64,000 bases of DNA, taken from contig JAZLLY010000016.1 in the NCBI GenBank assembly GCA_045598385.1, forward strand, positions 210,000 to 273,999, in the 5' to 3' direction. The notes under the pieces are model-generated. The model searched no databases. It worked only from the letters and a program-made list of their open reading frames with translations, and had not been told where the DNA came from. Both the position numbers and the translations under genes were made by a program. Below, one piece after another: positions 41,948 to 61,353 of the stretch. Positions within the stretch are counted from its first letter, which is position 1. Every line of letters starts with the position of its first letter. This DNA comes from Eubacteriales bacterium (GTDB taxonomy: Bacteria > Bacillota > Clostridia > Oscillospirales > CAG-272).

Positions 41948-41979
41948 TAAGAGCCGGGGAAAGTCCGGCTCTTTGGTCT

Positions 41980-45533: not shown

Positions 45534-45972
45534 GACTGTTAAAAAAGTGCAGACCGAAAAAGAAAAAATGACTGTTATACCGTTTTTTCCGCTTTCTTCT
45601 GTAATACAAGGTTGAAATCCTGACGGATTTCATCGGTTTTGATTTGATTTTCCTTTTTCTACCGTCGAAAGACGCCTCTGTCGTACGCTTGTACGCCGAC
45701 GTGTCGCCTTTCGGCGCTTCTGCCTCTTTTTTATCCAGCCCCATCAGACTGTTAAAAAAGTGCAGACCGAAAAAGGAAAAATGACTGTTATACCGTTTTT
45801 TTCCGCTTTCTTCTGTAATAAATGGTTGAAATCCTGACGGATTTCTCCGGTTTTGATTTGTATTTCCTTTTTCTACCGTCGAAAGACGCCTCTGTCGTAC
45901 GCTTGTACGCCGACGTGTCGCCTTTCGGCGCTTCTGCCACTTTTTTATCCAGCCCCAAATGCTGTTAAAAAA
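45534..45972. repeat. Non-coding 213-bp tandem direct repeat (two full copies plus the start of a third)
   Basis: Copies begin GACTGTTAAAAAAGTGCAGACCG at 45534 and 45747. GCTGTTAAAAAA recurs at 45961. I count about ten differences between copies by manual alignment. Confidence 0.85.
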
Positions 45973-45992
45973 AGACGCCGGTTTTCGGCGTC
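45966..45992 (-). terminator. Terminator of the NAD(P)H-hydrate dehydratase gene
   Basis: Minus strand: GACGCCG-aaaac-CGGCGTC followed by TTTTTTT. Confidence 0.8.
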
Positions 45993-46001
45993 CGTGAAGC
46001 A

Positions 46002-46859
46002 TTATTCCGTTGTCAGCGCGAGTATCTCTTTCGCGATCGCCGCGGGGAGATCCGAGGCGGTCACACCGTACGGAGAAAAGACTTTTCCGAGCGTTTCCCC
46101 GGCTTTTCCGTGAAGATAAGCCCCGAGGGCGGCGGCGATCTGCGGTTCTACCCCGGAGGCGCAAAGCCCGGCGATCAGCCCGGCGAGAACGTCGCCGCTC
46201 CCCGCTTTGGCAAGTGAGGTATCGCCCGTCGTATTCAGAAAAGTCCGGTCGCCGTCGGTGACGACGGTCCCGTTTCCTTTGAGAAGAACGACGCACCGCG
46301 CGCTTTTCGCAAACGAAACGGCGGCACCGACTCTGTCGGCTTCGATTGTTTTGACCGGAAGTCCCGACAACCGCGAAAATTCCCCGGGATGCGGGGTGAT
46401 CACGACGGGGCGGGACGCGCCCGAAAGGAGCGGGACGGCTTCGCCTGTGATCGCGCTCAACGCGTCGGCGTCAAGAATGAGCGGTGAGCCGGTGGTTTTC
46501 AACAATTCTATGACCGCGCTTTTCGTCTTCTCGTCGTTTCCGCATCCGGGGCCGAAAAGCGTGGCGTCGGTCTGCGAGGAAAGTGCCGCAAGTTCCTTTT
46601 CGTCCTCTTTGCCCGCGCCTCTGTAAACGATCTCGGGAAAACGGGAAAGGACGGCGGCTTTTACTTCCGGGGCCGCGGAAAAAATCACGTATCCGACGCC
46701 GCTGCGAAGTGCCGCTTCGGCAGAAAGACAGGCGGCACCCGGATAGGCGGGACTCCCCGCCGCGATCAGCACTTTTCCGAACGTGCCTTTGTTCGCGTTT
46801 TTCGGGCGCGGCGGCAGGGATTCTTTGGCTTTTCTTTCGTCAAAATACTCGGTTTTCAA
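46002..46859 (-). CDS. nnrD: ADP-dependent NAD(P)H-hydrate dehydratase
   Basis: 285 aa carbohydrate-kinase fold with the C-terminal GSGDVLAG motif. Confidence 0.85.
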   Translation of the reverse strand: MKTEYFDERKAKESLPPRPKNANKGTFGKVLIAAGSPAYPGAACLSAEAALRSGVGYVIFSAAPEVKAAVLSRFPEIVYRGAGKEDEKELAALSSQTDATLFGPGCGNDEKTKSAVIELLKTTGSPLILDADALSAITGEAVPLLSGASRPVVITPHPGEFSRLSGLPVKTIEADRVGAAVSFAKSARCVVLLKGNGTVVTDGDRTFLNTTGDTSLAKAGSGDVLAGLIAGLCASGVEPQIAAALGAYLHGKAGETLGKVFSPYGVTASDLPAAIAKEILALTTE

Positions 46860-46873
46860 AGGATGCCTCCATA

Positions 46874-47431
46874 TCAGGGATGCTTTTCGACAAGATAAAA
46901 ATACGGCGAGGTCGGTGAGTTGAGAATATGAAACTCCGACGCGCAGATCTGAAAACGGCTGAGCGTCCTGAAATACTCACGGAGCATATCGCCCTCGAGC
47001 GCGCCCTCTTCGTGCCCGGGATAAACGGCGATAATGAGCACGCCGTCGGGCGCGAGAAGACCGATCGCCGCTTCCACCGCCGGCATCGTCGTTTTCCGCA
47101 TCGTGGTGAGTTGTTTTTTTCCGCTCCCCGGCAGATAACCGAGATTGAAGATCCCGGCTTTTATCGGTCCGTCAACGAATTCACCGACGCGGTGATGGGA
47201 GGCACAGATCAAAGTATAATTGCGCGGGGCACCTTCTGCTTCCAGGTGTTTTCTCGTCGAATCGAGAGCGGCGCCCTGAATGTCAAACGCGAAGACTCTG
47301 CCGTTTTCCCCGACGGTCTTCGACAGAAAACAGGTATCGTTTCCGTTTCCCATCGTGAAATCCACGGCGGTATCGCCGGGGGCGAGATGTTCGAGAATAA
47401 AATATTTGTGCAATCCGCAAAGATCGACCAT
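46874..47431 (-). CDS. Class I SAM-dependent methyltransferase, YtqB/MnmM-like
   Basis: 185 aa. Contains VDFTMGNGNDT and GYLPGSGKK, as in YtqB-type tRNA methyltransferases. Confidence 0.7.
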   Translation of the reverse strand: MVDLCGLHKYFILEHLAPGDTAVDFTMGNGNDTCFLSKTVGENGRVFAFDIQGAALDSTRKHLEAEGAPRNYTLICASHHRVGEFVDGPIKAGIFNLGYLPGSGKKQLTTMRKTTMPAVEAAIGLLAPDGVLIIAVYPGHEEGALEGDMLREYFRTLSRFQICASEFHILNSPTSPYFYLVEKHP

Positions 47432-47440
47432 AGACGCTCC

Positions 47441-49159
47441 TTATTTTGCCGGTGTGACGAGGCAGGAATAGTTGGTATGATAAATGACGAAGCCGGGCTT
47501 TGCACCGGCGGGCTTTTTGATATTTTTCACGCGGGTGTAATCGACCGTCACCGACGCGCCGTTCGCCTGCGAATGTTTGGCGGCGAGTGCCGCCGCCTCG
47601 GTATAATCGGCGTCGGACGGCTCTTCTCCGTGTGTGCGGAGGATCACGTGAGAGCCCGGCATATCCTTGACGTGAAACCAGATATCGCCCTTTTCGGCGA
47701 TCTTGAACGTCAACTGATCGTTCTGCGTGTTGTTGCGTCCGATCAGAACCTCGAAGCCACCGCTCGTTTTTGTAACGATTGGTTTGCATTTTACCGCTTT
47801 TTGCGGTTGATAGCCCCGCATACGGGAGGCATAACCGCTCCGATAAAGTTCGTCGCGGATGTCAAAAAGGTCCTGCTCCGTTTCCGCACGGGACAGAAAA
47901 TCACGCACCGAGGCAAGATAAGCAAGTTCCTTTTCCCATTCGGCGATCCGCTCGGTCAGTACCGCTCTCGCGGTTTTGCACTTGTTGTACTGCTTATACA
48001 TTTTCTGGGCGTTGGCGGACGGGGAAAGACGCGCGTCGAGCGGGACTTCGACCTCTTTTGCGTTCTCGCTGTAATAATCGGCGGTCACAAAGGACGTCAT
48101 GCCGCGGGAAAGCCGGTACAGGTTCGCCGTGATGAGATCCCCGCGCTTTTTGTACTCTTCGCCCATTTCGCTGTCGAGGAGCGCCTGCTTCTGGATCGCG
48201 AGTTTCTTCTCGGTGCGCGCCTCGGCGTTTCCGAGCAGTTGCAAAAGGTCGTGGCCGCGCTGACGGATGCGCTCGACGCGGTCTTTTTCCTCAAAATAAG
48301 CGTCGAAAAGCGCGGCGAAATCGGGGTAGGAAACGGCGGTATAACCGAAGCACGAAAGCGGCATATAACAATAATCTTTCGGGTGGGAATCCGCGTCGAG
48401 AAACGCGGTCGGCTCATACTCTTCTTTGATCAGTTTTTCCTGCCACGCGGAAAAAACGTCGTACAAACGTTCGGGCCGGATATCGCAAAGCGGCACGTCG
48501 CATTTCCCTGCGGTGCGGTGACAGATCTCGTGCGCGACCTGCGTCGCGATACCGCCGTAAACCGCCGTGATGAACTTCTCGACGGTGCGCCCCTCGCCAA
48601 ACGACGAAAGCGCGTCAAAGAAAAACCCGCGGTCGATCACGAGCGGCGACGCTTTTCCCTGCTCTGCCGGCGGGGTATAGCGAAGCCCCGGGAGAACCTG
48701 TCTGACGGTACTGTCGGAAAAGTCGATCAGTTTCAGAGCGGAGATGATCTTTTCTTCCCCGTCGGTCAGAATGAGATTGGCGTATTTACCCATAATTTCG
48801 CAGTAAAGGATCTTCGTCCCGACGTAGCCGAGTTCGTCGGTCGCCGAAAAAACGAAACGGGCGATGCGGTCAAAGCCGACCTGTGATACTTCCGTGATCC
48901 TTGCTCCCGAAAGATGCTTCCGCAAAAGCATACAGAACATCGGCGGGACCTTCGGATTGTCCTTTTGCAGTCTTGATAGCTGAAGGCGCGGCGCGTTCGG
49001 ACCTACGTTGAAAAGGAGACGCGCGGAGGACCTGCCGGAATGGATGCAAAGATCCACTTCGTCTTTTGCGGGCATCAAAACTTTTTCGACGCGTGCGTCG
49101 GAAAAATCGCGTTTGATCTCCGTCAGCACGGCGCGCATCATACAAGCGTCAAATGCCAT
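47441..49159 (-). CDS. rqcH: Ribosome quality control protein RqcH (NFACT / fibronectin-binding protein A family)
   Basis: 572 aa. N-terminal NFACT-N (MAFDACMMRAVLTEI...), a coiled-coil middle, and C-terminal NFACT-R (WFHVKDMPGSHVIL). Confidence 0.85.
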   Translation of the reverse strand: MAFDACMMRAVLTEIKRDFSDARVEKVLMPAKDEVDLCIHSGRSSARLLFNVGPNAPRLQLSRLQKDNPKVPPMFCMLLRKHLSGARITEVSQVGFDRIARFVFSATDELGYVGTKILYCEIMGKYANLILTDGEEKIISALKLIDFSDSTVRQVLPGLRYTPPAEQGKASPLVIDRGFFFDALSSFGEGRTVEKFITAVYGGIATQVAHEICHRTAGKCDVPLCDIRPERLYDVFSAWQEKLIKEEYEPTAFLDADSHPKDYCYMPLSCFGYTAVSYPDFAALFDAYFEEKDRVERIRQRGHDLLQLLGNAEARTEKKLAIQKQALLDSEMGEEYKKRGDLITANLYRLSRGMTSFVTADYYSENAKEVEVPLDARLSPSANAQKMYKQYNKCKTARAVLTERIAEWEKELAYLASVRDFLSRAETEQDLFDIRDELYRSGYASRMRGYQPQKAVKCKPIVTKTSGGFEVLIGRNNTQNDQLTFKIAEKGDIWFHVKDMPGSHVILRTHGEEPSDADYTEAAALAAKHSQANGASVTVDYTRVKNIKKPAGAKPGFVIYHTNYSCLVTPAK

Positions 49160-49177
49160 ATAATACCTACTGTTTTG

Positions 49178-50353
49178 TCATGTTTTGTTGTCATTTTCTC
49201 TTAAAAACGACAGAAGAGACGACTTTTCGTTCTTCACTTTCCCATCCATGACGGCAAAGAGAAGTTTTTCGAGCGCATCGCCGAGCGCGGTGCCGTCAAA
49301 GCCGGCGGACAAAAGATCCCCGCCCCGCAGGGCAAGATCGGAAAGTTTCGTCGGGGGATTCTCTGCCATGAGAGCGTCGAAAGCCGAAAGGCGGGATCCG
49401 CCGTCCGAAAGATCCGACAGAAGAAGAAAATCGCGGGCTCTTTCTTTTCCGAGGGAAAAGCAAAGGCGCAGATACCCGCCGCGCGAAAGTTCGCCTACGT
49501 CCTCCGTTCCGAGGATCGCAACGCCGTCGTCGAGAAACTTTTTCTCGGTTTTTAGGCGTCGGCACATCGCGGCAAAATGCGCCGCGCGGTCTTTGTCGTT
49601 CCAGAGGAGTTCGAGTGTACGGTGTTTATCGTCCTCCGTGCCGAACGCTTCGGGCACGGTAAGGGGGACACCCGGGAAAAGAAACGCGAATACTTGAGAG
49701 TATTCCCGCAGAACGGCGGCGGGGTTCTTCCCCGCCCGCGCTTTTCGCCACTCTGCATAGATCCGCTCCGCCGATACGTCGGCGAGAAGTTCGTAACACG
49801 AAAGCACGGCGGCTTTCGTCTTTTCTTCGACCGAAAAGCCGAGCACCGAAGCAAAACGCAGGGCGCGGAGGATACGCAGGGCGTCCTCGCGGAAGCGGAC
49901 GGACGGCTCGCCGACACAGCGGATCCGCCGTTTTTCGATATCTTCCCTGCCTCCGAAAAGGTCGGTGATCCCAAAAGTCGGATGATAGCACATCGCGTTT
50001 ACGGTAAAATCGCGGCGGGAGAGGTCGGACGAAAGATCACGGGTAAACGTCACGTTTTCGGGATGACGGTGATCGGCATAATCCCCGTCCGTCCGATAGG
50101 TCGTGACCTCGACGGGTTCGCCTTCAACGATGACAGTCAGAGTACCGTGCTTCCGTCCCGTTTCGATCACCTTGAAATCCCCGAAAACGCGGAGCATTTC
50201 CTCCGGCGTCGCCGAGGTGGTCATGTCAAAATCGTGAGGAGAAAGGCCGAGCAGAAAATCGCGGACGGAACCGCCGACGACGTCGGCACGGAATCCGGCA
50301 TTTTTCAGGGCTTCAAAAACGGCGCGGGCGCCGTTTGAAAGACGCATATCCAT
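49178..50353 (-). CDS. cca: CCA tRNA nucleotidyltransferase
   Basis: The nucleotidyltransferase motif GGSVRDFLLG...DFDMTT is present. The ATG at 50353 follows AAAGGAGAGAGG. The track start at 50374 is a TTG. Confidence 0.8.
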   Translation of the reverse strand: MDMRLSNGARAVFEALKNAGFRADVVGGSVRDFLLGLSPHDFDMTTSATPEEMLRVFGDFKVIETGRKHGTLTVIVEGEPVEVTTYRTDGDYADHRHPENVTFTRDLSSDLSRRDFTVNAMCYHPTFGITDLFGGREDIEKRRIRCVGEPSVRFREDALRILRALRFASVLGFSVEEKTKAAVLSCYELLADVSAERIYAEWRKARAGKNPAAVLREYSQVFAFLFPGVPLTVPEAFGTEDDKHRTLELLWNDKDRAAHFAAMCRRLKTEKKFLDDGVAILGTEDVGELSRGGYLRLCFSLGKERARDFLLLSDLSDGGSRLSAFDALMAENPPTKLSDLALRGGDLLSAGFDGTALGDALEKLLFAVMDGKVKNEKSSLLSFLRENDNKT

Positions 50354-50481
50354 ATCCTCTCTCCTTTCTGTCAAAATATTTTATCATATATCCTCTCTCT
50401 TGTCAACGAAACGCCGTGATTTTCATTGACACGGAAGACCTTTTCTGCTATACTGGGAACGATGTTATTATGAGGTGCTAT

Positions 50482-51384
50482 ATGAAACTTTCATCGACAA
50501 CGTCTTCGCTTTTCGCCACGTTCGGCGAAGAAGACGGCATCAAGGTCGCAAAGGAGGTCGGTTTCGACGCTCTCGACCTCAATCTCATCCTGCCGACGCC
50601 GCCGCTCTACGAGAAAGACGGCTTTTTGAAATACGCCGACCGTCTCCGCAACGCCGCGGAAAAGGCGGGGATGCCGTTCAACCAGGCGCACGCACCGTTC
50701 CCGACCATGAAATTCAAAAACGGCGACACCGCAAAGCCGGACGAGGAATATAACGCGATCACGAGAAAACGCATCGAGGACGCGATCCTTTGCACCGGGC
50801 GGATCGGTGCCGAACAGATCGTCATCCATCCCGTCGATTTTCTCGGCAGAGCCGACGCCAAAGAGAGAAACATCGAGATCTACCGCTCCTTTGCCCCGAT
50901 CGCCGAGGAAGCGGGCGTGAAGATCGCTCTTGAAAATATGTGGGGCTACCGCCCCGGCACGCGGCACATCGTCCCGAACGTTTGCAGCACCGGCGAAGAA
51001 CTCGGTGCCTATTACGACGCGCTCCCGTCCTCGCGCTTTTCGGTCTGTCTTGATCTCGGGCACTCGGAACTGGTGAACGAAACGGCGGAAGCCGCGATCC
51101 TCGCGCTCGGTCACGACCGTCTGCACGCGCTCCACGTCCACGACAACGACAGTATGACCGACGGGCACACGATCCCCTATTTCGGCGTCATGAACTGGGA
51201 GAGGATCACGAAAGCCCTCGCCGATATCGACTACGGCGGCGACTTCACCTTTGAGGTCAACGGCGCCGCGTTTCAGCGGCTCGAAAAAGAGCCGAAAACG
51301 GCGTATTTCGCCTACGCCCTCCTGGCGCAAACAGGAAAGACGCTCATTGAAAAAATAGAAAAATACAAAGAAAAAAGACAATAA
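50482..51384 (+). CDS. Sugar phosphate isomerase/epimerase (xylose isomerase-like TIM barrel)
   Basis: 300 aa. The motifs IVIHP, IALENM and HVHDN are typical of the AP endonuclease 2/xylose isomerase-like fold. The ATG at 50482 follows GAGGTG. Confidence 0.8.
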   Translation: MKLSSTTSSLFATFGEEDGIKVAKEVGFDALDLNLILPTPPLYEKDGFLKYADRLRNAAEKAGMPFNQAHAPFPTMKFKNGDTAKPDEEYNAITRKRIEDAILCTGRIGAEQIVIHPVDFLGRADAKERNIEIYRSFAPIAEEAGVKIALENMWGYRPGTRHIVPNVCSTGEELGAYYDALPSSRFSVCLDLGHSELVNETAEAAILALGHDRLHALHVHDNDSMTDGHTIPYFGVMNWERITKALADIDYGGDFTFEVNGAAFQRLEKEPKTAYFAYALLAQTGKTLIEKIEKYKEKRQ

Positions 51385-51402
51385 TCGACAGAAAAAATAT
51401 AA
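51236..51402. repeat. Direct repeat copy A (3' end of the isomerase gene plus 18 nt downstream)
   Basis: The 167 bp match 56680-56846 with 4 mismatches by manual alignment. Confidence 0.9.
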
Positions 51403-51438
51403 CGATCCTCCCGCAGAACGGGGGGATCGTTATTTTTT
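51392..51438. terminator. Bidirectional terminator
   Basis: ACGATCCTCC-cgcagaacg-GGGGGATCGT, flanked by an A-run upstream and a T-run downstream. Confidence 0.7.
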
Positions 51439-51514
51439 GTTTCCGTTCTTCCCTGATCGGAAAGAACGGAAACCAAAAGAGTTAAGGTTTTGTGATTATC
51501 GAGAGGAAAACTGA

Positions 51515-54500
51515 TTATCCGATCTCGGAAACGGTCCATACGCCGTTATCCGTATCTTCAACGGACTGATAATTTTCATCGAAAAGGTAAGAAGTCAGGT
51601 CGTCGGTATTCGGGCCTGCCGGGTTGAAGCCGTGGAAGGTACCGCCTTTGACTTTGATGCTTGCGTTTGCTTCATCGCCATTCTTGATATTCAGTACCCA
51701 ATACCGACCGTTGTATTTCGCATCACTGCTGAACTCACCGCCTTCGATCACGATCTGTCCGACTTTTAGCGCGTAGATCGTCGAATTTCCTTTTCCTCCG
51801 TTATCAGCGCCGACGGTGAAGGTTCCACCTTTAATCGTAACGGTACCGTTCTCTACGCTAACTGCTTTGCTGTCATATCCGTTCTTTCCTGTAAACGTTC
51901 CGCCGGAGATCGTAATCTTCATCTTCTCATTGAACGTCGTGGGATTCACCGTGTCGATGACCGTCAAGGCATAAATGCCGGTGAACGAGCCACCGCTGAT
52001 CGTTACATTGATCTCACAAGCGGTTGTATGCTGTGAAATAGCAAGGGCGGCGCCTTTAACGGTCGTTCCGTTTCCGTTTGCAGTTGCGCTGTATTCCGTA
52101 GCATTGGAAACAAGGGATCCGCCGGTGATATTCACCGTTCCCGCTCTGACTTCCACGGGAGTGGGCGCCGTGATGGTTCCACCGGAAATATTCAGCGTTC
52201 CGTCCTGCGGATGATAAATACCAGTTCCCGCAGAAGTGATGGAACCGCCGGTCACGTTGATCATCGTTCCCCAATACGCTTCCGAACCGTTACCGACGAT
52301 ACCGTAAGCCGCCGTCGTCGTAATGGTGGCTGCCGTCGTCAGAGTCGGTTTTGTATCCGTAACGATGGAAATGGCATCGACGACGGAATCAATTATGAAC
52401 GTATCTTCCAACGTCACGTTACCCTGCTTCACATAAATCGCCGCATAAGCGTCAGAATTCGTGACTTTCAGCGTGCCGTTTCTTATGGTTAACGTCATAT
52501 TTCTTCCAACGCAAATGGCGCCAACGTCACCGGATTTTGTCGAAGTGATCGTATGACCGTTCAAATCCAAAATAACATTCTTTACCAATACAGTGAATGT
52601 AATTTGAGAATTGACGGTAACGTCATCTAACAGTTTCCAAGTACCGTCTGAAGCCATAGAAGTGATGGAATCTTTATAAGTTGTCGTTTCGCCATTGGTA
52701 ACCGAAGCAATCGCTTTTTTGACCGTAAGCGTTCCATTGGCAAAAGTAATGTCATAGTTTGCCGCTTCCAGTCCGGAGACCGTAATGACGTAAGTTCCGG
52801 CAACATTCTGTGTTTTGTCATAATCGCCAAAACCATAAACGGCATCTCCGGTCAGAACGGTTTTGGTTTCACCGTTGACAAATCCCGTTGCGGTATAGGC
52901 GCCGCTCGGGGTGTTTCCGGCAACAATGGTTTTTTTGGATGCCGCTACGGTGAGAGGTGCTTTTGCTATGACAAAATCAAAGGTCAAGTCGTCGGAAGAT
53001 CCGTCGTCCCATGCATAATTGGTTTTGTCTTTGAGGGCAACGGTAATGACACTCGTGCCCGCACCGGTCTTCGTTAAATCACCGGTAATGGTATAAAGGA
53101 GGTCATTTGCCGCAAGCGTATAGGTCTGTTCCAGACCGGTGTACGTAAACTCCGTTGTGTCTGCGTTCGGTTTAGCGACTTTGATCGGGGTTTCAGCTTC
53201 TTCCTTCACGCCACAACCTTCGCGCTGACAAACGCGAGACTTTTTACCATGTGCCTCGTAGGTTGCATCAACGTCGATCGTCCAGTCACCAAAATCATGA
53301 CCGAGTTTCGATCCGGTATCGACTACGGTGTCGGGTTCGGTACAATTGTCGTTGTCGCACTTTGCAGTCTTGGTACCGTCATTCAAACAGGTCGCGTCAT
53401 TGTTAGATTCGTAATTTGTGAAAGAGTGTCCGAGTTTCGAGCCGGTATTGACTACGGTGTCGGTTGCGGTACAATTGTCGCACGTTGCAGTCTTGGTACC
53501 GTCAGCCGTGCAGGTCGCGTTACCGTCGGAGACATAAGTCGTGAACGAGTGATCAAGCGCGGGGATTTCTTCCGTTTCTTCATATCCGCAGGCACAAACG
53601 TGTTTTTTAAGTCCTTTGGTCGTGCAGGTCGCGGGAGTCACGGGTTCCCATGCGCTAAAGGTATGCTCGGCTTTACCGGCGAGCACGCCATGTCCGCAGG
53701 TATCGGCGTGCCAGTGGTAGGTCTCGTTACACGTCCAATCTTCCGAATAGGTGTGGTCGGTCTTTTCGGTTTCGCGCGTCTCTTCATATCCGCAGACGAT
53801 GCAAGAACGTTCTTGCAGTCCTTTAGTCGAGCAGGTCGCTTCTTTTCCTTCCACGTCAGTCCACTTGCCGAACATGTGATTGCCAACATCGGCAAACACG
53901 TAATCACCGCAGGTCGCGGCACGCCAGTGCTGCTCTTCGTTGGACGACCATTCTTCGTCGTAGGTATGAGCACCCTCTTTTACTTCGCCGGACGCGAAGG
54001 TCTCGGTGCCTTTCGCTCCGCAGACGCAGGAGTAGTAATACTGCGCTTTCGCGGAGCAGGTCGCTTCGCTCGCCAGATAAACTTCGGTTGCTACTTCTTG
54101 ATCGTAGGTATGATCGAGCACCGGGATCACAGTCACATCGGTGACTTCGTCACAACCCTCACGCAGACAATGGTGAGATTTCGAGCCCGCGGTCTTGCAG
54201 GTTGCTTCGGTATCAATCGTCCAAATGTCAGAGTAGTTGTGATCGAGTGCGTCGATATCCTGTGTTTCTTCGTATCCGCAGACGGCGCACACATGTTTTT
54301 CGCTGCCCTTTTCGGTGCAGTTGGGTTCATTTACGGTCTCCCAATCGCCGTATTCGTGTCCGAGTTCGTCGATCACAGTCACATCGGTGACTTCATCACA
54401 ACCGTCGCGCAGACAATGGCGGGATTTCGAGCCCGCGGTCGTGCAGGTCGCGGGAAGATCAATCTTGAATTCCGACGAGAAGTTATGATCAAGCGCGTCG

Positions 54501-56404
54501 ATATCGCGCGTTTCTTGATATCCGCAGACGACACAAGCACGGACCTGCGTTCCTTTGTCCTCACAGGTTGCGGGAGTCTCGGTAGTCCAAAGCCCGAACG
54601 TATGCCCGTCTTTATCGGCGACCCCGCCATGTCCGCAGATAGCGGCGTGATAATGCTCGTTTTCGTTATAAGTCCACTCTTCCGAATAGGTGTGGTCGGT
54701 CTTTTCGGTTTTGCGCGTCTCTTCATATCCGCAGACGATGCAAGAACGTTTTTGCTCTCCCTCATTCGAGCAGGTCGCTTCTTTTCCTTCCACGTCAGTC
54801 CACTTGCTGAACGTGTGAGCGGATTCACCCGAGATCTCCGTTACATGCTCACAGGAAGCGTCGTGCCAGTGGTGGGTCTCGTTATACGTCCAATCTTCCG
54901 AATAGGTGTGGTCGGTCTTTTCGGTTTCGCGCGTTTCTTTATATCCGCAGACGCGGCAAGAACGTTCTTGCAGTCCTTTAGTCGAGCAGGTCGCTTCTTT
55001 TCCTTCCACGTCAGTCCACAAACCGAAAATATGCTCGGTTTTGCTCGTGATAAGTTCGATATGTCCGCAGGTCGCGGCGTGCCAATGCTCGGTATCGTTA
55101 CACGTCCATTCTTCTGAAAATGCATGGTCGATCATTTCGACTTCGCGCGTTTCTTCATACCCGCAGACGGTGCAAAGACGGTGTTCAACACCTTTCTTTG
55201 AGCAGGTCGGAGCCGTGACGGTCGTCCAGTCGCCGAAGGTGTGGACACCTTTATCCACGAAAAGATCGGTATGCTCGCAGGTAGCGGCGTGCCAATGCTC
55301 GGTTTTGCTGGACGACCACGTTTCGGCATACGTATGGTCGATCATATCCATATCGCGGGTTTCTTCGTATCCGCAGGCGGTGCAAAGACGGTGCTCGAGC
55401 CCTTTGCTTGCGCAAGTCGGAGCCGTCACAGTCTCCCATTCGCCGAACGTATGTTCCGCTTTATCCGCGAAAAGATCGGTATGCTCGCAGGTAGCGGCGT
55501 GCCAATGCTCGGTCTCATCATACGTCCAGGTTTCGGCGTACGTATGGTCGATCATATCCATTTCGCGGGTTTTTTCATATCCGCAAACCGTGCAAAAACT
55601 ATGCTCGACGCCTTTGCTTCCGCAAGTCGGAGCCGTCACAGTCTCCCACGTTTCGAAAATGTGTTCCGCTTTATCCGCGATGAGGTAGGAATGTTCGCAA
55701 GTGGCAAAGCGCAGATGCTCGGTTTCACTGTACATCCACGTATCGGAGTACGTATGCGGAAGCATTTCGATCTCACGCGTTCCTTCGTATCCGCAAACGG
55801 TGCAATAACTGTGTTCAAGTCCTTTGCTTCCGCAAGTCGGTTCGGTCACAGTCTCCCATTCGCCGAACGTATGTTCCTCTTTATCCGCGAAAAGATCGGT
55901 ATGCCCGCAGGTCGCAGCGTGCCAATGCTCGGTTTCGCTGGACGACCACGTTTTGGCGTAAGTGTGCGCCAATTTACTCGTCTGTCTGGTTTCTTCCAAT
56001 CCGCAGACGGTACAAACGCGGTGTTCAAGACCTTTTTCTCCGCAGGTCGCGGCCGTCACGGTTTCCCATGCACCGAAAGTGTGCACGTTATGCTCCGGGA
56101 CAAATTTCGCATATACCTTTATGCTTTTTGTGAAAGTTTCGTCGGCGAGAGAATCTGCTGAAAAGGGCGATTCCCACGTACCTTCGTCAAGGTACCAACC
56201 GTCAAAAGTATAGCCGTCTTTGACGGGATCCGCCATAATTTCGATTGTTTCATTTCCGCTTGTCCTGATGATATCGCGGACTTCTCCGTCCACGACAAAT
56301 TCGATCGCGTATTCCACTTTTCCGCACGCGGCAAAAGCAAAAATCGCAATCAGACAAGACAAAGTCAGCGCAAGGATCTTTCCAATGTTCTTTTTCATGC
56401 TCAA
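51515..56404 (-). CDS. Giant surface lipoprotein: Flg_new-type repeat, about 12-13 Cys/His-rich modules, MBG-like domain and C-terminal beta-helix-like repeats
   Basis: 1629 aa. Lipobox IFAFAAC. One YAIEFVVDG...GYTFDGWY repeat. Modules of about 57-70 aa follow the pattern H-TFG-W..V..ATC..KG.....C.VCGYEETR....DHTY...W....T.HWH..TC.H. It also contains an APLTV...NYDITF..GTLTV segment. GGAGG lies 8 nt before the ATG. Confidence 0.85.
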   Translation of the reverse strand: MSMKKNIGKILALTLSCLIAIFAFAACGKVEYAIEFVVDGEVRDIIRTSGNETIEIMADPVKDGYTFDGWYLDEGTWESPFSADSLADETFTKSIKVYAKFVPEHNVHTFGAWETVTAATCGEKGLEHRVCTVCGLEETRQTSKLAHTYAKTWSSSETEHWHAATCGHTDLFADKEEHTFGEWETVTEPTCGSKGLEHSYCTVCGYEGTREIEMLPHTYSDTWMYSETEHLRFATCEHSYLIADKAEHIFETWETVTAPTCGSKGVEHSFCTVCGYEKTREMDMIDHTYAETWTYDETEHWHAATCEHTDLFADKAEHTFGEWETVTAPTCASKGLEHRLCTACGYEETRDMDMIDHTYAETWSSSKTEHWHAATCEHTDLFVDKGVHTFGDWTTVTAPTCSKKGVEHRLCTVCGYEETREVEMIDHAFSEEWTCNDTEHWHAATCGHIELITSKTEHIFGLWTDVEGKEATCSTKGLQERSCRVCGYKETRETEKTDHTYSEDWTYNETHHWHDASCEHVTEISGESAHTFSKWTDVEGKEATCSNEGEQKRSCIVCGYEETRKTEKTDHTYSEEWTYNENEHYHAAICGHGGVADKDGHTFGLWTTETPATCEDKGTQVRACVVCGYQETRDIDALDHNFSSEFKIDLPATCTTAGSKSRHCLRDGCDEVTDVTVIDELGHEYGDWETVNEPNCTEKGSEKHVCAVCGYEETQDIDALDHNYSDIWTIDTEATCKTAGSKSHHCLREGCDEVTDVTVIPVLDHTYDQEVATEVYLASEATCSAKAQYYYSCVCGAKGTETFASGEVKEGAHTYDEEWSSNEEQHWRAATCGDYVFADVGNHMFGKWTDVEGKEATCSTKGLQERSCIVCGYEETRETEKTDHTYSEDWTCNETYHWHADTCGHGVLAGKAEHTFSAWEPVTPATCTTKGLKKHVCACGYEETEEIPALDHSFTTYVSDGNATCTADGTKTATCDNCTATDTVVNTGSKLGHSFTNYESNNDATCLNDGTKTAKCDNDNCTEPDTVVDTGSKLGHDFGDWTIDVDATYEAHGKKSRVCQREGCGVKEEAETPIKVAKPNADTTEFTYTGLEQTYTLAANDLLYTITGDLTKTGAGTSVITVALKDKTNYAWDDGSSDDLTFDFVIAKAPLTVAASKKTIVAGNTPSGAYTATGFVNGETKTVLTGDAVYGFGDYDKTQNVAGTYVITVSGLEAANYDITFANGTLTVKKAIASVTNGETTTYKDSITSMASDGTWKLLDDVTVNSQITFTVLVKNVILDLNGHTITSTKSGDVGAICVGRNMTLTIRNGTLKVTNSDAYAAIYVKQGNVTLEDTFIIDSVVDAISIVTDTKPTLTTAATITTTAAYGIVGNGSEAYWGTMINVTGGSITSAGTGIYHPQDGTLNISGGTITAPTPVEVRAGTVNITGGSLVSNATEYSATANGNGTTVKGAALAISQHTTACEINVTISGGSFTGIYALTVIDTVNPTTFNEKMKITISGGTFTGKNGYDSKAVSVENGTVTIKGGTFTVGADNGGKGNSTIYALKVGQIVIEGGEFSSDAKYNGRYWVLNIKNGDEANASIKVKGGTFHGFNPAGPNTDDLTSYLFDENYQSVEDTDNGVWTVSEIG

Positions 56405-56445
56405 AACCTCCGACCTTATTTTTTATCAAATTAAGTTCATATACT

Positions 56446-56611
56446 ATGGTAATAGATGAACAAACAAGTCGCATTAACGCCAAAATGGGCGTATCATATA
56501 AGCGAAAAACATAGCGGAAGAAAAAAATTACTCTTCCTATCATATTTATATTGACAAGTTTTTTCGATTATGATATCATGTTTATATCATAACGTTCATC
56601 TATTACCATAA
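56446..56611. promoter_or_regulatory. Invertible-promoter-like element (inverton candidate), promoter currently facing away from the giant lipoprotein gene (OFF)
   Basis: Perfect 17-bp inverted repeats: TATGGTAATAGATGAAC (56446-56462) and GTTCATCTATTACCATA (56595-56611). They flank 132 bp. The insert carries, on the plus strand, TTGACA (56552-56557), a 17-nt spacer and TGaTATCAT (-10 at 56575-56580). Confidence 0.65.
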
Positions 56612-56641
56612 TAGGCGGATTTTTTGCATAGTCGAAAATAC

Positions 56642-56675
56642 AAAAGGAAACAGGAAAAAACTGTTTCCTTTTTTT
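56642..56675. terminator. Bidirectional terminator on the distal side of the 56.5-kb switch
   Basis: AAAGGAAACAG-gaaaaaa-CTGTTTCCTTT followed by TTTT. On the minus strand the hairpin is also followed by TTTTGTATTTT. Confidence 0.7.
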
Positions 56676-56679
56676 GAGC

Positions 56680-56828
56680 GCGGCGACTTCACCTTTGAGG
56701 TCAACGGCGCCGCGTTCCAGCGGCTCGAAAAAGAGGCGAAAACGGCGTATTTCGCCTACGCCCTCCCGGCGCAAACAGGAAAGACGCTCATCGAAAAAAT
56801 AGAAAAATACAAAGAAAAAAGACAATAA
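56680..56828 (+). pseudogene. Orphan 3' fragment (last ~49 codons) of the sugar phosphate isomerase gene
   Basis: It encodes GDFTFEVNGAAFQRLEKEAKTAYFAYALPAQTGKTLIEKIEKYKEKRQ-stop, nearly identical to the end of 50482-51384. There is no upstream coding sequence or start codon. Confidence 0.85.
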
Positions 56829-56846
56829 TCGACAGAAAAAATATAA
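56680..56846. repeat. Direct repeat copy B
   Basis: Matches 51236-51402 (167 bp, 4 mismatches). Confidence 0.9.
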
Positions 56847-56873
56847 GGGAACAGAAAAATCTGTTCCCTTTTT
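56835..56873. terminator. Terminator hairpin following repeat copy B
   Basis: AGGGAACAG-aaaaat-CTGTTCCCT followed by TTTT. Confidence 0.65.
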
Positions 56874-56910: not shown

Positions 56911-56938
56911 AACAACTAATAGTTAATAGTTATTAGTT
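56911..56938 (-). terminator. AT-only palindrome, probable tsf terminator
   Basis: CAACTAATA-gttaatagt-TATTAGTTG. On the minus strand it is followed by TTTTTG. Confidence 0.5.
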
Positions 56939-56948
56939 GCGCCTGCGC

Positions 56949-57869
56949 TTAGCCGTTGACCATTTTGGCGATCTCCGCCGCGAAGTCCTCTTCTCTCTTC
57001 TGGAGGCCTTCGCCTTTGTCGTAACGAACGTAGCCCTTGACTTTGATCTCGCCGCCGAGTTCTTTGGCGACGGAGGCAACGTACTTCGCCACGGTCATGG
57101 AATCGTCTTTCACGTAAAGCTGATCCATGAGGCAGTTGGTCTCGTAGAACTTACCGAGTTTGCCGATGACGATCTTTTCGAGGACCTGAACGGGCTTGCC
57201 CGCCATTTTCGGATCCTGCTGCATCTGCTTGATGAGGATCTCTTTTTCCTCGGCGATCACCTCTGCGGGGACGGAATCACGGTCGAGATACTGAACGGGC
57301 ATAGCGGCGGTCTGGAGCGCGACGTTCTTCGCGCACTCGGCAAAGCCGTCCTTGCCGGCGAGGTCGGTGTCAAAGGAAATGATGACGCCGGTCTGACCGA
57401 GGCCGTGGATGTAAGTGGATACGGTGCCTTCGACGACCGTGAAACGGCGGATCGAAAGTTTTTCACCGATCTTGTAGGTTTTTTCGGCAAGGGCGTCTTT
57501 CACGGTGCCCTCTCCGTTTGCCATGTTGCAGTCCATCAGGGCGTCAACGTCGGCAGGTTTGTTCGCGATGACGGTTTTCAGGATGTCTTTGACAAATTCC
57601 TGGAACACGGCGTTCTTCGCGACGAAGTCGGTTTCGGAGTTGACTTCGATGATCGCGGTCGTATCACCGACCGTCATGATATCGACAAGTCCCTCTGCGG
57701 CGATACGGTTTGCCTTTTTCGCGGTGGCAGCCATACCTTTTTCACGGAGGATCTTGACAGCGGCTTCAAAATCGCCGTTCGCGTCTTTGAGAGCGTTTTT
57801 GCAGTCCATCATACCGCAACCGGTCTGTTTTCTGAGCTCGGCTACGTCTTTAGCGGAAAATTCAGCCAT
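56949..57869 (-). CDS. tsf: Translation elongation factor Ts
   Basis: N-terminal UBA-like AELRKQTGCGMMDCKNAL. 306 aa from the Met at 57869, which follows AAGGAG. Confidence 0.95.
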   Translation of the reverse strand: MAEFSAKDVAELRKQTGCGMMDCKNALKDANGDFEAAVKILREKGMAATAKKANRIAAEGLVDIMTVGDTTAIIEVNSETDFVAKNAVFQEFVKDILKTVIANKPADVDALMDCNMANGEGTVKDALAEKTYKIGEKLSIRRFTVVEGTVSTYIHGLGQTGVIISFDTDLAGKDGFAECAKNVALQTAAMPVQYLDRDSVPAEVIAEEKEILIKQMQQDPKMAGKPVQVLEKIVIGKLGKFYETNCLMDQLYVKDDSMTVAKYVASVAKELGGEIKVKGYVRYDKGEGLQKREEDFAAEIAKMVNG

Positions 57870-57891
57870 TTTTCGTTCTCCTTTTATTCTA

Positions 57892-58650
57892 TTATTCGGC
57901 GTCGGCAGCCGCGACTTCTTCCGCGGGTGCTTCCTCGGTCGCTTCGGCAGCGGGAACTTCTTCCTGTACACCGCCGTGTGCGGCGATCACGGCATCGGCA
58001 AGCGCGCCGCTGATCAGTTTGATGGCGCGGATGGCGTCATCGTTACCGGGGATGATATAATCGGCGTCGTCGGGATCGCAGTTGGTATCGACGATAGCCA
58101 CGACGGGAATACCGAGTTTCTTTGCTTCCAGAACGGCGTTTCTTTCCTTGTGCGTGTCAACGATGAATACGCAGGAAGGAAGAGCGTCCATCTCTTTGAT
58201 ACCGCCGTATGCTTTTTCCAGATCGGCGATCTCTTTCTGTTTCTTCGCGACTTCTTTCTTGGGAAGAAGATCGAAGGTTCCGTCAAGCTGCATTTTCTCA
58301 AGATCCTTGAGGCGCTTGATGGATTTACGGATGGTGTGGAAGTTGGTGAGCATACCGCCCGGCCAACGCACATTGACGTAGTACATACCGCATCTCTGTG
58401 CTTCTTCGCGGATGGTCTCCGCTGCCTGCTTCTTCGTACCGATGAAAAGAACGGTGCCGTTCTCGGCGGCAACGGAAGAAACGAAATTGTACGCTTCCTC
58501 GAACTTCTTTACGGTCTTCTGAAGGTCAACGATATGAATACCGTTTCTCTGGGTGAAGATGTACTCTGCCATCTTCGGATTCCACTTCTTGGTCGGGTGA
58601 CCGAAGTGAACGCCTGCTTCAAGCAACTGCTTGATCGTGATTTCGAACAT
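57892..58650 (-). CDS. rpsB: 30S ribosomal protein S2
   Basis: Contains [10 protein letters not shown] and [17 protein letters not shown]. The rpsB-tsf order is conserved. Confidence 0.95.
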
Positions 58651-58769
58651 TTTTCATGTTCCTCCTTGGTTTTTTCCGCCACGGCGTCCATTGCTGCGAC
58701 TCTTTTGAGCACCGGCAACAAAGCCAAACGTCGTGTGAGATTTATTTTTCCGCGCAAGCGGACTCATGT

Positions 58770-58798
58770 ATTATACATAAGCGCGCGTGAAATTGCAA
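58770..58798 (-). promoter_or_regulatory. Promoter for rpsB-tsf
   Basis: Minus strand: TTGCAA, 17-nt spacer, TGtTATAAT. This leaves a leader of about 115 nt. Confidence 0.55.
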
Positions 58799-58889
58799 CG
58801 GTTTTGCAGGTGAAAAATAAATAATTTACAAAAAGTTCACAAATTGGATTCCGGAAATGAAAAATAAAGGCGCCGGAGGGCGCTTTCTC

Positions 58890-58918
58890 TTGCATTATCG
58901 GGATTTTTGTGCTACAAT
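58890..58918 (+). promoter_or_regulatory. Promoter candidate
   Basis: TTGCAT, 17-nt spacer, TACAAT with an upstream TG. Confidence 0.45.
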
Positions 58919-58946
58919 ATCGGTATTCCAAGCGCGCGGAGGTCCT

Positions 58947-59618
58947 ATGAAAAAGAGCATTGCGGCACGGTTTCTCGTTTTTTCATCCCTTTTTTATTTT
59001 CTCGCTTTCCTTTTGCCCTATTTTGCCGGATCCGGGTTCTTTTTCTATTTTGCCGACTTTTTTCAGCGCTTCGTGATCCTGCTCGTCCCGGTCGGGACGG
59101 CGGCGCTCCTGTTGCCCCGCGCCTATGAAGAAAAGCCGCGGCATCTTTTCTTATTCTCGTTTTTGTTTTCTCTGCCGATTACGGCTTACACGCTTTTGTC
59201 CGGCTATCTCGACGTTTTCGATTACGGATTTTCGACGGGCGGTGCCTTGCTCATCAGTCTTTGTCTGTCCGTTCTTTACGCGTTTTTCGTCGGGCTTTTG
59301 GTTTTCCTTGCTCTTCTGCTGTTGCGCTTTCTCCTTTCCCGCGTGAAAAAGGAAGACGCGGACGGGGGCAGCGCTTTCGATTTCGGAAAAAAAGTGCCGT
59401 TTTCCGTCGGGGTGATCAACGCCGTCTATACGCTCGGCACTCTGCTTTACGAGATCGTCAGCACCGCTATTTTCCTCTGCCGTTATTTTGACTCTTACTC
59501 TCTCTCGGAGATCCTCTATATCGGTTGTGTGATCCCTCTCATTTTCGCGTTTTTCTTCCCCGTTCAGAAGATCGCGGTCGGAATCGCACGCGGCGCGGAA
59601 AACGCGCGGAAATCATAA
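58947..59618 (+). CDS. Polytopic membrane protein, unknown function
   Basis: 223 aa with about six hydrophobic helices. The ATG at 58947 follows GGAGG. Confidence 0.5.
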   Translation: MKKSIAARFLVFSSLFYFLAFLLPYFAGSGFFFYFADFFQRFVILLVPVGTAALLLPRAYEEKPRHLFLFSFLFSLPITAYTLLSGYLDVFDYGFSTGGALLISLCLSVLYAFFVGLLVFLALLLLRFLLSRVKKEDADGGSAFDFGKKVPFSVGVINAVYTLGTLLYEIVSTAIFLCRYFDSYSLSEILYIGCVIPLIFAFFFPVQKIAVGIARGAENARKS

Positions 59619-60191
59619 CGCGGCGAACCTTTCGATCCCGTCTTTTTCGGTCAGTTTTTCCGCGTGTTCCCGGATGCAGGGAAAAAGACTTTTCGGCACG
59701 CTGTCGCCGTATTCGCACAGACAGAGATAATCCGCCTTTTTGTCCTCTCTTTTCAGGACCGTAAGATAATAACTGCCGTCCTCCCCGAGATAAACGTCGC
59801 TCTCTTCCCTGCCTCCCGAGGCAAGGACCGTCCGGGCCGCCATTTTCAGCAAATCGAGGTCGGAAAAACGATAGGTCAACCGCTCGGTTTTAAGCGTCGT
59901 CACCCTGTCACTCTCCTCGATTTTTCTGACGCCGGCGGGGGACAGTTTTCCGAGTTTTGTGACGAAGAGTTCCCCGCCGCCGTCCGTTTTCGGATACATC
60001 TGCAACAATACGCGTTCTTCCCCGACGTCAAACCGTTTTTCGGCTTTGGCTTCGTCGAGGATCTTCCAAAAGATCTTCCGGTACTTCGGATCGTCGTAAT
60101 CCGTCCTTTCGGACGTGAGTCCGTAGTACGCCATGTCTTTCGCATCCAGCGTGATTTTCATTTTGTGATCGGAAATGATAAGATACCGCAT
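59613..60191 (-). CDS. mecA: Adaptor protein MecA-like
   Basis: 192 aa. The N-terminal KITLDAKDMAYYGL and the overall size and charge pattern resemble MecA. Confidence 0.65.
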   Translation of the reverse strand: MRYLIISDHKMKITLDAKDMAYYGLTSERTDYDDPKYRKIFWKILDEAKAEKRFDVGEERVLLQMYPKTDGGGELFVTKLGKLSPAGVRKIEESDRVTTLKTERLTYRFSDLDLLKMAARTVLASGGREESDVYLGEDGSYYLTVLKREDKKADYLCLCEYGDSVPKSLFPCIREHAEKLTEKDGIERFAAL

Positions 60192-60224
60192 ATTCTCTCC
60201 TTATCATTCTATTATACGATCTTC

Positions 60225-60307
60225 CCCGCGACCTGTCACAGAACGGTGAGTTCGAGACCTTCCTCACCGTGCCGTACGGCAACAAAAACAAAACTAAAGG
60301 AAACGCC
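60225..60307 (+). ncRNA. Candidate preQ1 riboswitch leader of queT (class uncertain)
   Basis: Hairpin GGTGAG-TTCGAGACCTTC-CTCACC, then GCCG-ta-CGGC, then the A-rich tail CAACAAAAACAAAACTAAAGGAAAC. The GGAA of the RBS region can pair with TTCC in the first loop. The downstream gene is queT. Confidence 0.4.
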
Positions 60308-60844
60308 ATGAACCGCAAAAAAATCCGATTTCTCACCTGCGGCGCCGCGATCGCCGCGCTCTATTTCGCCCTGACGCTTTTGTCCTCTCTTTTCGGGCTT
60401 TCGAGCGGGGCGATCCAATGCCGGCTTTCGGAAGCGCTGTGCATTCTGCCCGCCTTTTTGCCGGAGGCGGTCCCGGGACTTTTTCTCGGTTGTCTTCTGT
60501 CGAATCTTCTTTCCGGCAATATCTTTGATATTCTGATCGGCAGCGCGGCGACGCTGATCGGCGCCGTCGGCACGCGGCTTCTGCGCCGTGTCCGGTACCG
60601 CGTCCTGCTCCCGCTCCCCACCGTACTTGCCAATACGATTTTCATTCCCGCCGTACTTCTTCTGATGGCAAAAACGCCGTTTACGCCCGTCGCGTATCTG
60701 ACTTTTGCCGCGACCGTATGCGCCGGTGAATGTCTTTGCGCACTTATTCTCGGTACTTTGCTCGACCGTCTGCTTCTTCGCTCACGCCTTTTCTCCAAGG
60801 AGGAATTATGGGAAAACTTCACACCTTCGAAAAAGAAAAACTGA
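60308..60844 (+). CDS. queT: QueT queuosine-precursor transporter (ECF S-component-like)
   Basis: 178 aa and multi-pass. The N-terminus (AIAALYFALTLL...IQCRLSEAL) is typical of QueT. Confidence 0.75.
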   Translation: MNRKKIRFLTCGAAIAALYFALTLLSSLFGLSSGAIQCRLSEALCILPAFLPEAVPGLFLGCLLSNLLSGNIFDILIGSAATLIGAVGTRLLRRVRYRVLLPLPTVLANTIFIPAVLLLMAKTPFTPVAYLTFAATVCAGECLCALILGTLLDRLLLRSRLFSKEELWENFTPSKKKN

Positions 60845-61353
60845 TCGTCGGCGTCATCTATCACGATCCCGCCGTTCTGGAGCGGGGACTTTCGATGCTC
60901 ACGGACGCTTTCGGTCCCACCGACGACGTCACCGAGGAATTCTCCTTTTCCCGCGATTTTTCCACCTATTACGACGATGAGATCGGCGGGGAGGGCTTCC
61001 GCCGCATTTACAGTTTCGAGACGCTCGTCGATCCCGCAAGGCAGGCAGAGATCAAGACTTTGACCAACGCGATGGAAAAAGAACTCTCGGTCGGAGAGGA
61101 TCGGAAGATCAATCTCGATCCCGGATTTCTCAACATCGGACGCGTCATGCTCGCGACGACGAAGCCCGCGTATTTCCGTATTCCCCTCGCGGACGGTATC
61201 TACACCGAACTGACGCTCTTTTACGGGCGCGGCGTATGGAACAAGTTGCCCTGGACCTACCGCGATTATCAGAGCCCGCTCGTGCAGGAATTTCTCACGC
61301 GGGTACACAAAAAATATCTCGCGCAAAGAAAAGATGCGGCAAAGAACCCCTGA
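60808..61353 (+). CDS. DUF4416-family protein
   Basis: 181 aa. Contains the KLIVGVIY and RKINLDPGFL motifs. The ATG at 60808 follows AAGGAGG. It overlaps queT by 37 nt. Confidence 0.6.
   Translation: MGKLHTFEKEKLIVGVIYHDPAVLERGLSMLTDAFGPTDDVTEEFSFSRDFSTYYDDEIGGEGFRRIYSFETLVDPARQAEIKTLTNAMEKELSVGEDRKINLDPGFLNIGRVMLATTKPAYFRIPLADGIYTELTLFYGRGVWNKLPWTYRDYQSPLVQEFLTRVHKKYLAQRKDAAKNP

Follow-up and report, generated by a model that had tools for sequence, protein, structure and literature searches.

We describe a 64,000-nucleotide window from a Eubacteriales bacterium (GenBank assembly GCA_045598385.1, contig JAZLLY010000016.1, positions 210,000 to 273,999), in which a cassette made of one giant lipoprotein gene and its control elements lies between a sugar-phosphate isomerase gene and tsf, bracketed by two near-identical copies of the isomerase 3' end. 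The best explanation, to which we assign a probability of about 0.65, is that this recombinase-less cassette was inserted at the isomerase/tsf junction with a long duplication of the target. Read in this way, the locus is an already known kind of insertion scar with an unusual cargo.

A duplicated isomerase tail and the empty site in a sister species

A repeat search of the whole window detected direct repeats of 167 nt at 51236–51402 (copy A) and 56680–56846 (copy B), with a start-to-start distance of 5,444 nt. The two copies are identical at 163 of 167 positions (98%) and differ at 51273 (T in copy A, C in copy B), 51292 (C/G), 51323 (T/C), and 51348 (T/C), which leaves identical tracts of 37, 18, 30, 24, and 54 bp between them. 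Each comprises the final 149 bp of the isomerase gene, whose stop codon is at 51382–51384, followed by 18 bp of A-rich spacer, and the identity breaks off sharply at both borders of each repeat. This pair is the sole dispersed repeat longer than 60 nt and more than 95% identical in the 64 kb, the remaining repeats being tandem or intragenic. Chance as the origin of the two copies is not an issue.

The isomerase gene itself (50482–51384, plus strand) is intact. It encodes a sugar-phosphate isomerase/epimerase with a xylose isomerase-like TIM barrel (Pfam PF01261, AP_endonuc_2; E 5e-32), and its product of 300 amino acids is identical to P0001. The protein is rare: we found the identical product on one other contig (L001), and the next relatives are 73% (L007; relative with assembly GCA_024500545.1) and 64% (P0003) identical. 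Copy A, on the plus strand, forms the functional 3' end of this gene and has, like the orthologues, the P of EKEPK and the L of ALLAQ. Copy B, on the same strand, is an orphan 3' fragment without a start codon, located between two hairpin terminators. It translates in the isomerase frame without a stop and differs from copy A by two residues, a proline changed to alanine and a leucine changed to proline. An earlier note on this DNA had claimed that the isomerase tail and 18 bp of downstream sequence recur with four mismatches, and that the second copy is an orphan fragment still in frame. The repeat search and alignment showed the first statement to be exact, and the translation of copy B confirmed the second.

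The locus without the cassette was found in Clostridiales bacterium UBA1740 (GCA_002315715.1), a sister species whose isomerase, P0003, is also carried by four further contigs from other samples. In five of five contigs (L002–L006, from five samples), 48 bp separate the isomerase stop codon from that of tsf, and the repeat segment is present in a single copy. Thus, relatives in which the isomerase gene is followed directly by tsf, which the earlier note had suggested looking for, do exist, and they have the same order of flanking genes. To the left, the window and UBA1740 share CotJ genes, a carbohydrate kinase, an rRNA methylase, NFACT, the CCA-adding enzyme, and the isomerase. To the right, they share tsf, rpsB, a hypothetical gene, MecA, QueT, DUF4416, and LexA; the window genes at 58.8–62.1 kb, which lie outside the Pfam scan, were assigned from the translations of open reading frames (ORFs) and from synteny with UBA1740. 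As determined by blastn, positions 5540–10894 of L002 correspond to window positions 46024–51375, and positions 10949–15336 correspond to 56949–61334. The isomerase-tsf gap between these matches is 54 bp in UBA1740 as compared to 5,573 bp in the window. Synteny resumes exactly at 56949, where tsf, the right outer flank, ends (56949–57869, minus strand; PF00889); its product, elongation factor Ts, is 94% identical to that of UBA1740.

Copy B is followed by T_B (56845–56870), a bidirectional terminator common to the isomerase gene and tsf, with the stem GGGAACAG..CTGTTCCC. The counterpart of T_B in UBA1740 (GGGACAG..CTGTCCC) is the only hairpin of the 48-bp intergenic region there, and T_B is the ancestral isomerase/tsf terminator. 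Because the hairpin after copy B matches this single intergenic hairpin, both outer flanks of the repeats are ancestral. They are adjacent in UBA1740, while the inner flanks are new, and this is the signature of a target-duplicating insertion.

Other relatives were less informative. Exact-protein look-ups with tsf, rpsB, and the lipoprotein returned no record. A first scan of species-representative genomes gave no match, and a second one, based on an alignment of three sequences, recovered only UBA1740 and distant Acidobacteria-type paralogues. The closest tsf relatives (P0243, P0244, and P0246; 87–89%) come from genomes arranged differently, in which a histidine kinase gene comes after tsf, and are uninformative. 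On the contig of the closest other species, with the 73%-identical isomerase (L007, Logan SRR17543914), the 128 nt from the isomerase stop codon to the contig end (946–1073) contain a different terminator hairpin and not tsf. The isomerase/tsf junction may be occupied differently there, in which case it could be a hot spot for insertions.

The differences between the two copies have a direction. Three of the four sites have the same state in copy A and in both orthologues (the P in EKEPK, the L in (A/R)LLA, and a TTT codon); there, copy B is derived, through the two nonsynonymous changes given above and a third that is synonymous. The fourth site is 51348, where a second strain (L001, Logan SRR26714002) has in its copy A the C of copy B, and thus, copy A of the window changed after the split of the two strains. 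The pattern fits initially identical copies, with purifying selection on copy A and relaxed selection or drift on copy B, and we regard copy B as a decaying relic.

L001, which is 99.15% identical to the window, covers the isomerase gene through copy A and a further 71 nt of the cassette, up to 51473; over these 71 nt, it shows no difference from the window. Copies A and B are 2.4% apart, as compared to 0.85% between the two strains (16 mismatches in 1,888 nt) and about 22–28% between the two species at this locus. Thus, the duplication predates the divergence of the two sampled strains and is much younger than the species split, and its youth argues that UBA1740 represents the true pre-insertion state and not the outcome of a secondary precise deletion.

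A lipoprotein gene and an inverton-like promoter between the repeats

The insert between the repeats spans 51403–56679 (5,277 bp). At its left inner end, folding predicted two stable hairpins, T_A at 51399–51433 (−29.9 kcal/mol, z −7.0) and a second one at 51434–51478 (−25.3 kcal/mol, z −5.2). T_A is bidirectional and now serves as the terminator of the isomerase gene, and the second hairpin is placed after the stop codon of the lipoprotein gene. The latter gene (51515–56398, minus strand) encodes a lipoprotein of 1627 amino acids with a signal peptide that has a lipobox-like ending, AFAAC. A GGAGG motif lies 8 nt ahead of its ATG at 56398. The protein contains a Listeria-Bacteroides repeat (Flg_new), approximately 14 Cys-rich repeats of about 70 amino acids, an MBG domain (MBG_2), and a beta-helix-like C terminus. 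A close homologue was absent among 5.8e9 proteins; the best match is 32% identical over 58%, and its genomic context is unrelated to the cassette.

Upstream of the lipoprotein gene, we found an invertible-promoter-like element at 56442–56613. Its 20-nt arms (56442–56461 and 56594–56613) are complementary at 19 of 20 positions and enclose a promoter with an extended −10 element (TTGACA-17-TATCAT, 56551–56579). The element thus has the composition expected of an inverton, an inverted-repeat pair enclosing a promoter beside the gene to be regulated. The promoter is directed away from the lipoprotein gene, and the assembled sequence therefore represents the OFF orientation. Well-known invertons are the capsule promoters of Bacteroides and cwpV of Clostridioides difficile with RecV, and an inverton depends on its host for a compatible invertase. 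Invertible promoters that control surface proteins have been described in gut bacteria (PMC11602134, PMC11892184). The cargo of the cassette resembles them in that an inverted-repeat pair about 130 nt apart and a strong sigma-70-type promoter lie upstream of a surface protein gene. In contrast, bounding of such a cassette by target-derived direct repeats is unusual in descriptions of invertons and is not mentioned in PMC11602134. A recombinase for the inverton-like element was not found among the scanned ORFs of the window.

The arms share the core AATAGRTGAAC with a second element of the window, located at 41523–41717. A metagenome scan for AATAGRTGAAC-N120-150-GTTCAYCTATT returned 14 matches, all of them unrelated palindromes from organisms of other GC content. 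An inverton-like element on the same 11-nt core was seen at 2013–2187 of an unrelated low-GC metagenome contig (L033, JAEIGA010371350.1), with arms that are each palindromic (GTTCATCTATT-CACAT-AATAGATGAAC).

No Pfam mobility domain was found on either strand of the cassette, and the scanned ORFs of the window contained no integrase, transposase, invertase, or other Pfam mobility domain. The locus has no tRNA and no Rfam match, and no relative of the cassette DNA was detected among 72,556 plasmids or 50,697 phage records. We rejected a transposon or insertion sequence, as the insert lacks terminal inverted repeats at 51403 and 56679, no transposase was found, and the duplication measures 167 bp versus the 2–14 bp of such elements. 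Integration of the tRNA/att type was likewise rejected, as there is neither a tRNA nor an integrase.

The division of roles between the copies, with copy A completing the gene and copy B displaced as a pseudogene tail, is also seen with site-specific elements that bring a replacement 3' end. In Escherichia coli, prophage e14 (and phage 21) occupies the 3' end of icd and leaves the icdC pseudogene, and its excision yields a chimeric functional gene (PMC13626634). As in the window, a housekeeping gene is kept intact there by a near-identical replacement tail, with the displaced C-terminal fragment at the other end. However, the 15-kb prophage e14 encodes an integrase and undergoes site-specific excision upon SOS induction, whereas the scan of the window cassette found no recombinase, and an element-encoded tyrosine or serine integrase beside the putative att site was seen neither in the cassette nor among the scanned ORFs. 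The cassette would then have to be the remnant of an element integrated at the isomerase 3' end, the integrase and most genes of which have since been deleted. We consider this highly improbable: there is no integrase, excisionase, phage gene, or gene of an integrative and conjugative element between the repeats, and none in the scanned ORFs of the window; similarity to phages or plasmids was not found among the records searched; and a single gene with its control elements takes up the whole 5.3 kb.

The right inner end of the insert is formed by T_x (56633–56673), which consists of an A-tract, a hairpin (GGAAACAG/CTGTTTCC, 56642–56672; −19.6 kcal/mol), and a T-tract. The 41 nt of T_x match 56834–56873, that is, the final 13 nt of the repeat together with T_B, at 33 of 40 positions with one gap, and one stem position is altered on both sides, from A-T to G-C. 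The local alignment score is 43 as compared to 17 ± 2.3 for shuffles, and in the 64 kb, the motif GGRAACAG..CTGTTYCC occurs only in T_x and T_B. A chance likeness was rejected on the basis of a score about 11 standard deviations above the shuffles and the restriction of the motif to these two places. T_x is thus a diverged paralogue of the ancestral terminator T_B. Both terminators together would halt transcripts from the promoter in its OFF orientation before they enter tsf and rpsB as antisense. Upstream of copy B, its isomerase frame continues without a stop for at least 33 codons, through T_x and the right inverted-repeat arm (56583–56828, plus strand). No ATG was seen in this stretch, and the ORF listing contains no plus-strand ORF of at least 50 amino acids there.

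In its composition, the cassette is host-like. The lipoprotein gene has a GC content of 0.51, a GC3 of 0.56, and a small codon-usage distance from the remainder of the window, in a crude comparison whose reference set had some shadow ORFs. The comparison of GC and codon usage with the flanks that the earlier note had suggested thus gave no contrast; in this weak test, the cassette is not an outlier and resembles the host. Two claims of the note hold with qualifications. The description of the cassette as recently acquired agrees with a duplication younger than the species split (2.4% versus about 25%), while the host-like composition does not add to it. The description of a self-contained module agrees with a segment that holds only terminators, the lipoprotein gene, and an inverted-repeat-bounded promoter, apart from the right end with its copy of the ancestral terminator. 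The source of the acquired DNA may have been a close relative or another place in the same genome; such an origin is favored because of the host-like composition and because the inverted-repeat core is common to the second window element.

The joining step and competing histories

We propose that the 5,277-bp segment (51403–56679) was inserted at the convergent isomerase/tsf junction after the split from the UBA1740 lineage. The segment would have come as a full expression unit in which a single giant lipoprotein gene is accompanied by terminators, an invertible promoter, and a terminator that faces outward. Its insertion would have duplicated the 167-bp target: copy A preserved a complete isomerase gene, and copy B remained beyond the insert as a surplus tail. 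The joining step was most likely recombinase independent and may have involved two illegitimate or microhomology joints 167 bp apart, placed, for example, on sister chromatids or at a replication fork. Alternatively, the joining might have been achieved by one homologous crossover of a circular intermediate already carrying the segment. At the left joint (51402/51403), the repeat ends in ATAA, which supplies the outer base pairs of the T_A stem, and a 4-nt microhomology may have been involved. No microhomology was seen in the sequence at the right joint (56679/56680).

The repeats would have no function of their own. As a by-product, they would allow a RecA-type deletion that restores a perfect empty site, or a tandem amplification; unequal or intramolecular exchange would yield these products, the deletion leaving an intact isomerase gene followed by T_B. 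Identical tracts of such sizes, up to 54 bp, fall within the usable range of RecA-type recombination.

Insertion with long target duplication was reportedly described by Nobusato et al. in 2000. Furuta, Abe, and Kobayashi (2010, NAR 38:2428; PMC2853133) characterized such insertions with repeats of 46–423 bp, using as criteria a repeat longer than 30 bp, an insert shorter than 20 kb, the absence of mobility genes, and a single-copy alignment in the comparison genome. In their cases, the target repeats often overlap the 3' end of a neighboring gene, and deletion or amplification through the repeats was proposed. The window cassette resembles this class in its small insert without integrase or transposase, its long near-identical repeats, and the overlap with a 3' end. 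Its flanking direct repeats have 167 nt, 163 of them identical; the insert of 5,277 bp contains no Pfam mobility domain; and the repeat is neither a tRNA nor a known att site. The comparison genome, represented by UBA1740 contigs L002–L006, has the segment in a single copy with synteny on both sides, in a comparison between species and not within one. The cassette differs from the published class in the diverged extra copy of the target terminator inside the insert.

Several points weigh against an insertion of this type. The right junction (56679/56680) is without independent confirmation, as L001 shows the left junction only. The sole empty site comes from a different species, with an isomerase protein that is 64% identical. 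A same-species genome without the cassette was not found, and the only other same-species contig is L001, with its 1,888 nt. GC content and codon usage, although a weak test, give no sign of a foreign or distant donor. To our knowledge, the mechanism of long target duplication has never been shown experimentally, and we know of no established joining chemistry for this class. The published insertions carry restriction-modification genes and come from within-species comparisons (PMC2853133), whereas here the cargo is one lipoprotein gene with an invertible promoter, and the empty site is that of a sister species. The restriction-modification cargo belongs to the screen of that paper and not to the mechanism.

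T_x is a further point on this side. T_x and T_B differ at 7 of 40 positions as compared to 4 of 167 for the repeats (Fisher p = 0.001), and the order of cassette, diverged terminator, 167 bp, and terminator is predicted neither by a single insertion nor by a single tandem duplication. The history was probably multi-step, or the incoming DNA brought sequence from an earlier stay at an equivalent site. Three readings of T_x are possible: a terminator carried in from an earlier stay at the equivalent site in a diverged relative, a cassette-bearing and an empty allele joined via one-sided homologous recombination, or gene conversion that acted on the tails of an older duplication.

The unequal divergence also bears on the possibility that the tail and the terminator were first duplicated in tandem and later split by an insertion. 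A former tandem unit would suit the spacing of 201 nt between T_x and T_B; however, it predicts equal divergence for T_x/T_B and for copies A and B, whereas the observed divergence is unequal. Taken together with the possibility that strain variants were mis-joined in the metagenome assembly, this is the explanation to which we give the least credence. The source is apparently uncultured, its closest relatives are metagenome-assembled genomes, and the right junction has no second witness, all of which leave some room for a mis-join. On the other hand, the joint of T_x and copy B needs real k-mers in a graph assembler, and the source contig spans 311,786 bp. An assembly artefact is made unlikely by the four sites at which the copies differ and by the left junction, which was reproduced in the independent sample of L001.

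The order of T_x, 167 bp, and T_B could be accounted for by a history of two alleles, which we find improbable. An allele with the cassette and T_x, and without the duplication, would have integrated DNA from an empty allele by homology-facilitated illegitimate recombination. The second tail and T_B would have come in through homologous crossing over within tsf on one side and illegitimate joining directly behind T_x on the other. The same history accounts for the divergence of 17% between T_x and T_B as compared to 2.4% between the tails, and the latter value is of the same order as the 0.85% between the sampled strains. However, the changes P→A and L→P, the second in a helix, are non-conservative and affect conserved positions, which looks like decay and not like a functional allele. 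Moreover, we know of no allele that has the cassette but lacks the duplication.

An insertion of Campbell type deserves to be taken more seriously, although we judge it unlikely. Here, a circular, non-replicating DNA carrying the cassette and the 167-bp isomerase tail would have entered by a single homologous crossover, leaving a hybrid copy on each side. This is the history that the earlier note put first, with a duplication-insertion event as its second possibility, and the present data do not discriminate between the two. The topology of the locus is exactly the one that a single crossover leaves. All three derived changes of copy B fall within its leftmost 88 nt, and its final 54 nt show no difference from copy A. 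Such a distribution would suit a chromosomal gene that had crossed over, close to the right end, with a decayed fragment carried by the circle. T_x, host-like and next to copy B, shows that the incoming DNA held sequence of an isomerase/tsf-type locus, as would a circle excised from one. The life cycle proposed for such cassettes includes repeat-mediated excision followed by re-insertion (PMC2853133). Suicide plasmids integrate in a similar way, since a homologous fragment gives rise to direct repeats on both sides, and the insertion is reversible by a second crossover; these are laboratory constructs with a vector backbone, in contrast to the window insert, which has neither a backbone nor replication functions. 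Indeed, no replication, mobilization, or plasmid-like sequence was found between the repeats. A Campbell-type insertion also pushes the question back, as the circle would come most simply from a locus that was already duplicated.

A second cassette and the wider meaning of the scar

The insertion with long target duplication that we favor for the lipoprotein cassette may have a parallel within the same window. Apart from the isomerase/tsf junction, the only other large alignment gap is found where window positions 38056–42049 stand against 0.6 kb in UBA1740, which has an AAA_18 gene there. This second cassette contains a BspA-type leucine-rich repeat (LRR) lipoprotein gene (38479–41529, minus strand; 1016 amino acids). 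Upstream of the LRR gene lies a second inverted-repeat pair with the core AATAGRTGAAC (33 nt each, 129 nt apart; 41523–41555 and 41685–41717), which is followed by an outward hairpin. The cassette is bracketed by direct repeats of about 100 nt (38234–38333 and 41846–41946) that are about 80% identical with small gaps (score 65 as compared to 18 ± 2 for shuffles). They consist of small variable hairpins arrayed with ATCATAACT between them, and they are absent from the UBA1740 locus. When the module ends of the two cassettes were compared, only the inverted-repeat core of 11–13 nt was found in common, and nothing else was significant.

The hairpin arrays extend over 38234–38440 and 41846–42043 and combine variable stems with constant spacer motifs of 8–11 nt (ATCATAACT, ATGGAATC, and ACGTTTTCAAA). 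The ACGTTTTCAAA motif recurs with a period of 23 in 2.8 copies. CATAACT clusters occur only at both sides of the second cassette, and runs of the heptad (AGTTAWK)n at 38115–38146 and 56917–56940 mark the outer borders of both cassettes. None of the hairpin arrays, spacer motifs, or heptad runs was found in the UBA1740 loci.

The two cassettes of the window share the inverted-repeat core, are both absent from the corresponding UBA1740 sites, and are both bracketed by repeats. On this basis, we raise the speculation, doubtful as it is, that inverton-lipoprotein genes form a class of recombinase-less mobile cassettes in these Clostridia. The layout of such a class would be a terminator, a surface-protein gene, an inverton, and an outward terminator; its members may move by long target duplication, both inside a genome and from one genome to another, and may carry pieces of earlier targets with them. 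T_x could then be a fossil of the previous stay of the first cassette at an isomerase/tsf-type site.

Elsewhere in the window, a noncoding tandem duplication at 45583–45974, between the CotJ and carbohydrate kinase genes, consists of two 178-nt copies that are 92% identical and 214 nt apart. A low-GC patch (0.37) at 8133–9420 encodes a 23S rRNA intervening-sequence protein (PF05635), with tRNA genes at 8948–9028 and 9233–9305 and a Gut-1 RNA match (RF01706, 53.7 bits) at 9342–9420 beside it. A protein of 1245 amino acids encoded at 12004–15741 has a DUF4011 domain, AAA_11/AAA_12 helicase domains, and a C-terminal restriction-endonuclease-like domain (MTES_1575), and is possibly a defense or repair helicase-nuclease; its gene is followed by a tRNA gene at 16142–16214.

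For annotation, copy B should be labeled a pseudogene fragment, and the isomerase gene should be treated as intact. The locus offers a base-pair-resolved case in which a large, putatively phase-variable surface protein was gained, with the neighboring housekeeping gene unbroken and without recognizable mobile-element machinery. A little-studied mode of insertion, hitherto known from restriction-modification genes, is thereby extended to a surface-antigen cassette and to uncultured Clostridia. The repeats predict that strains will vary in the presence or copy number of the cassette, which matters for how variation in surface proteins is read from metagenomes. If inverton-lipoprotein genes do form a mobile class, long target duplication would not be peculiar to restriction-modification genes and would be a general route for the shuffling of phase-variable surface antigens.

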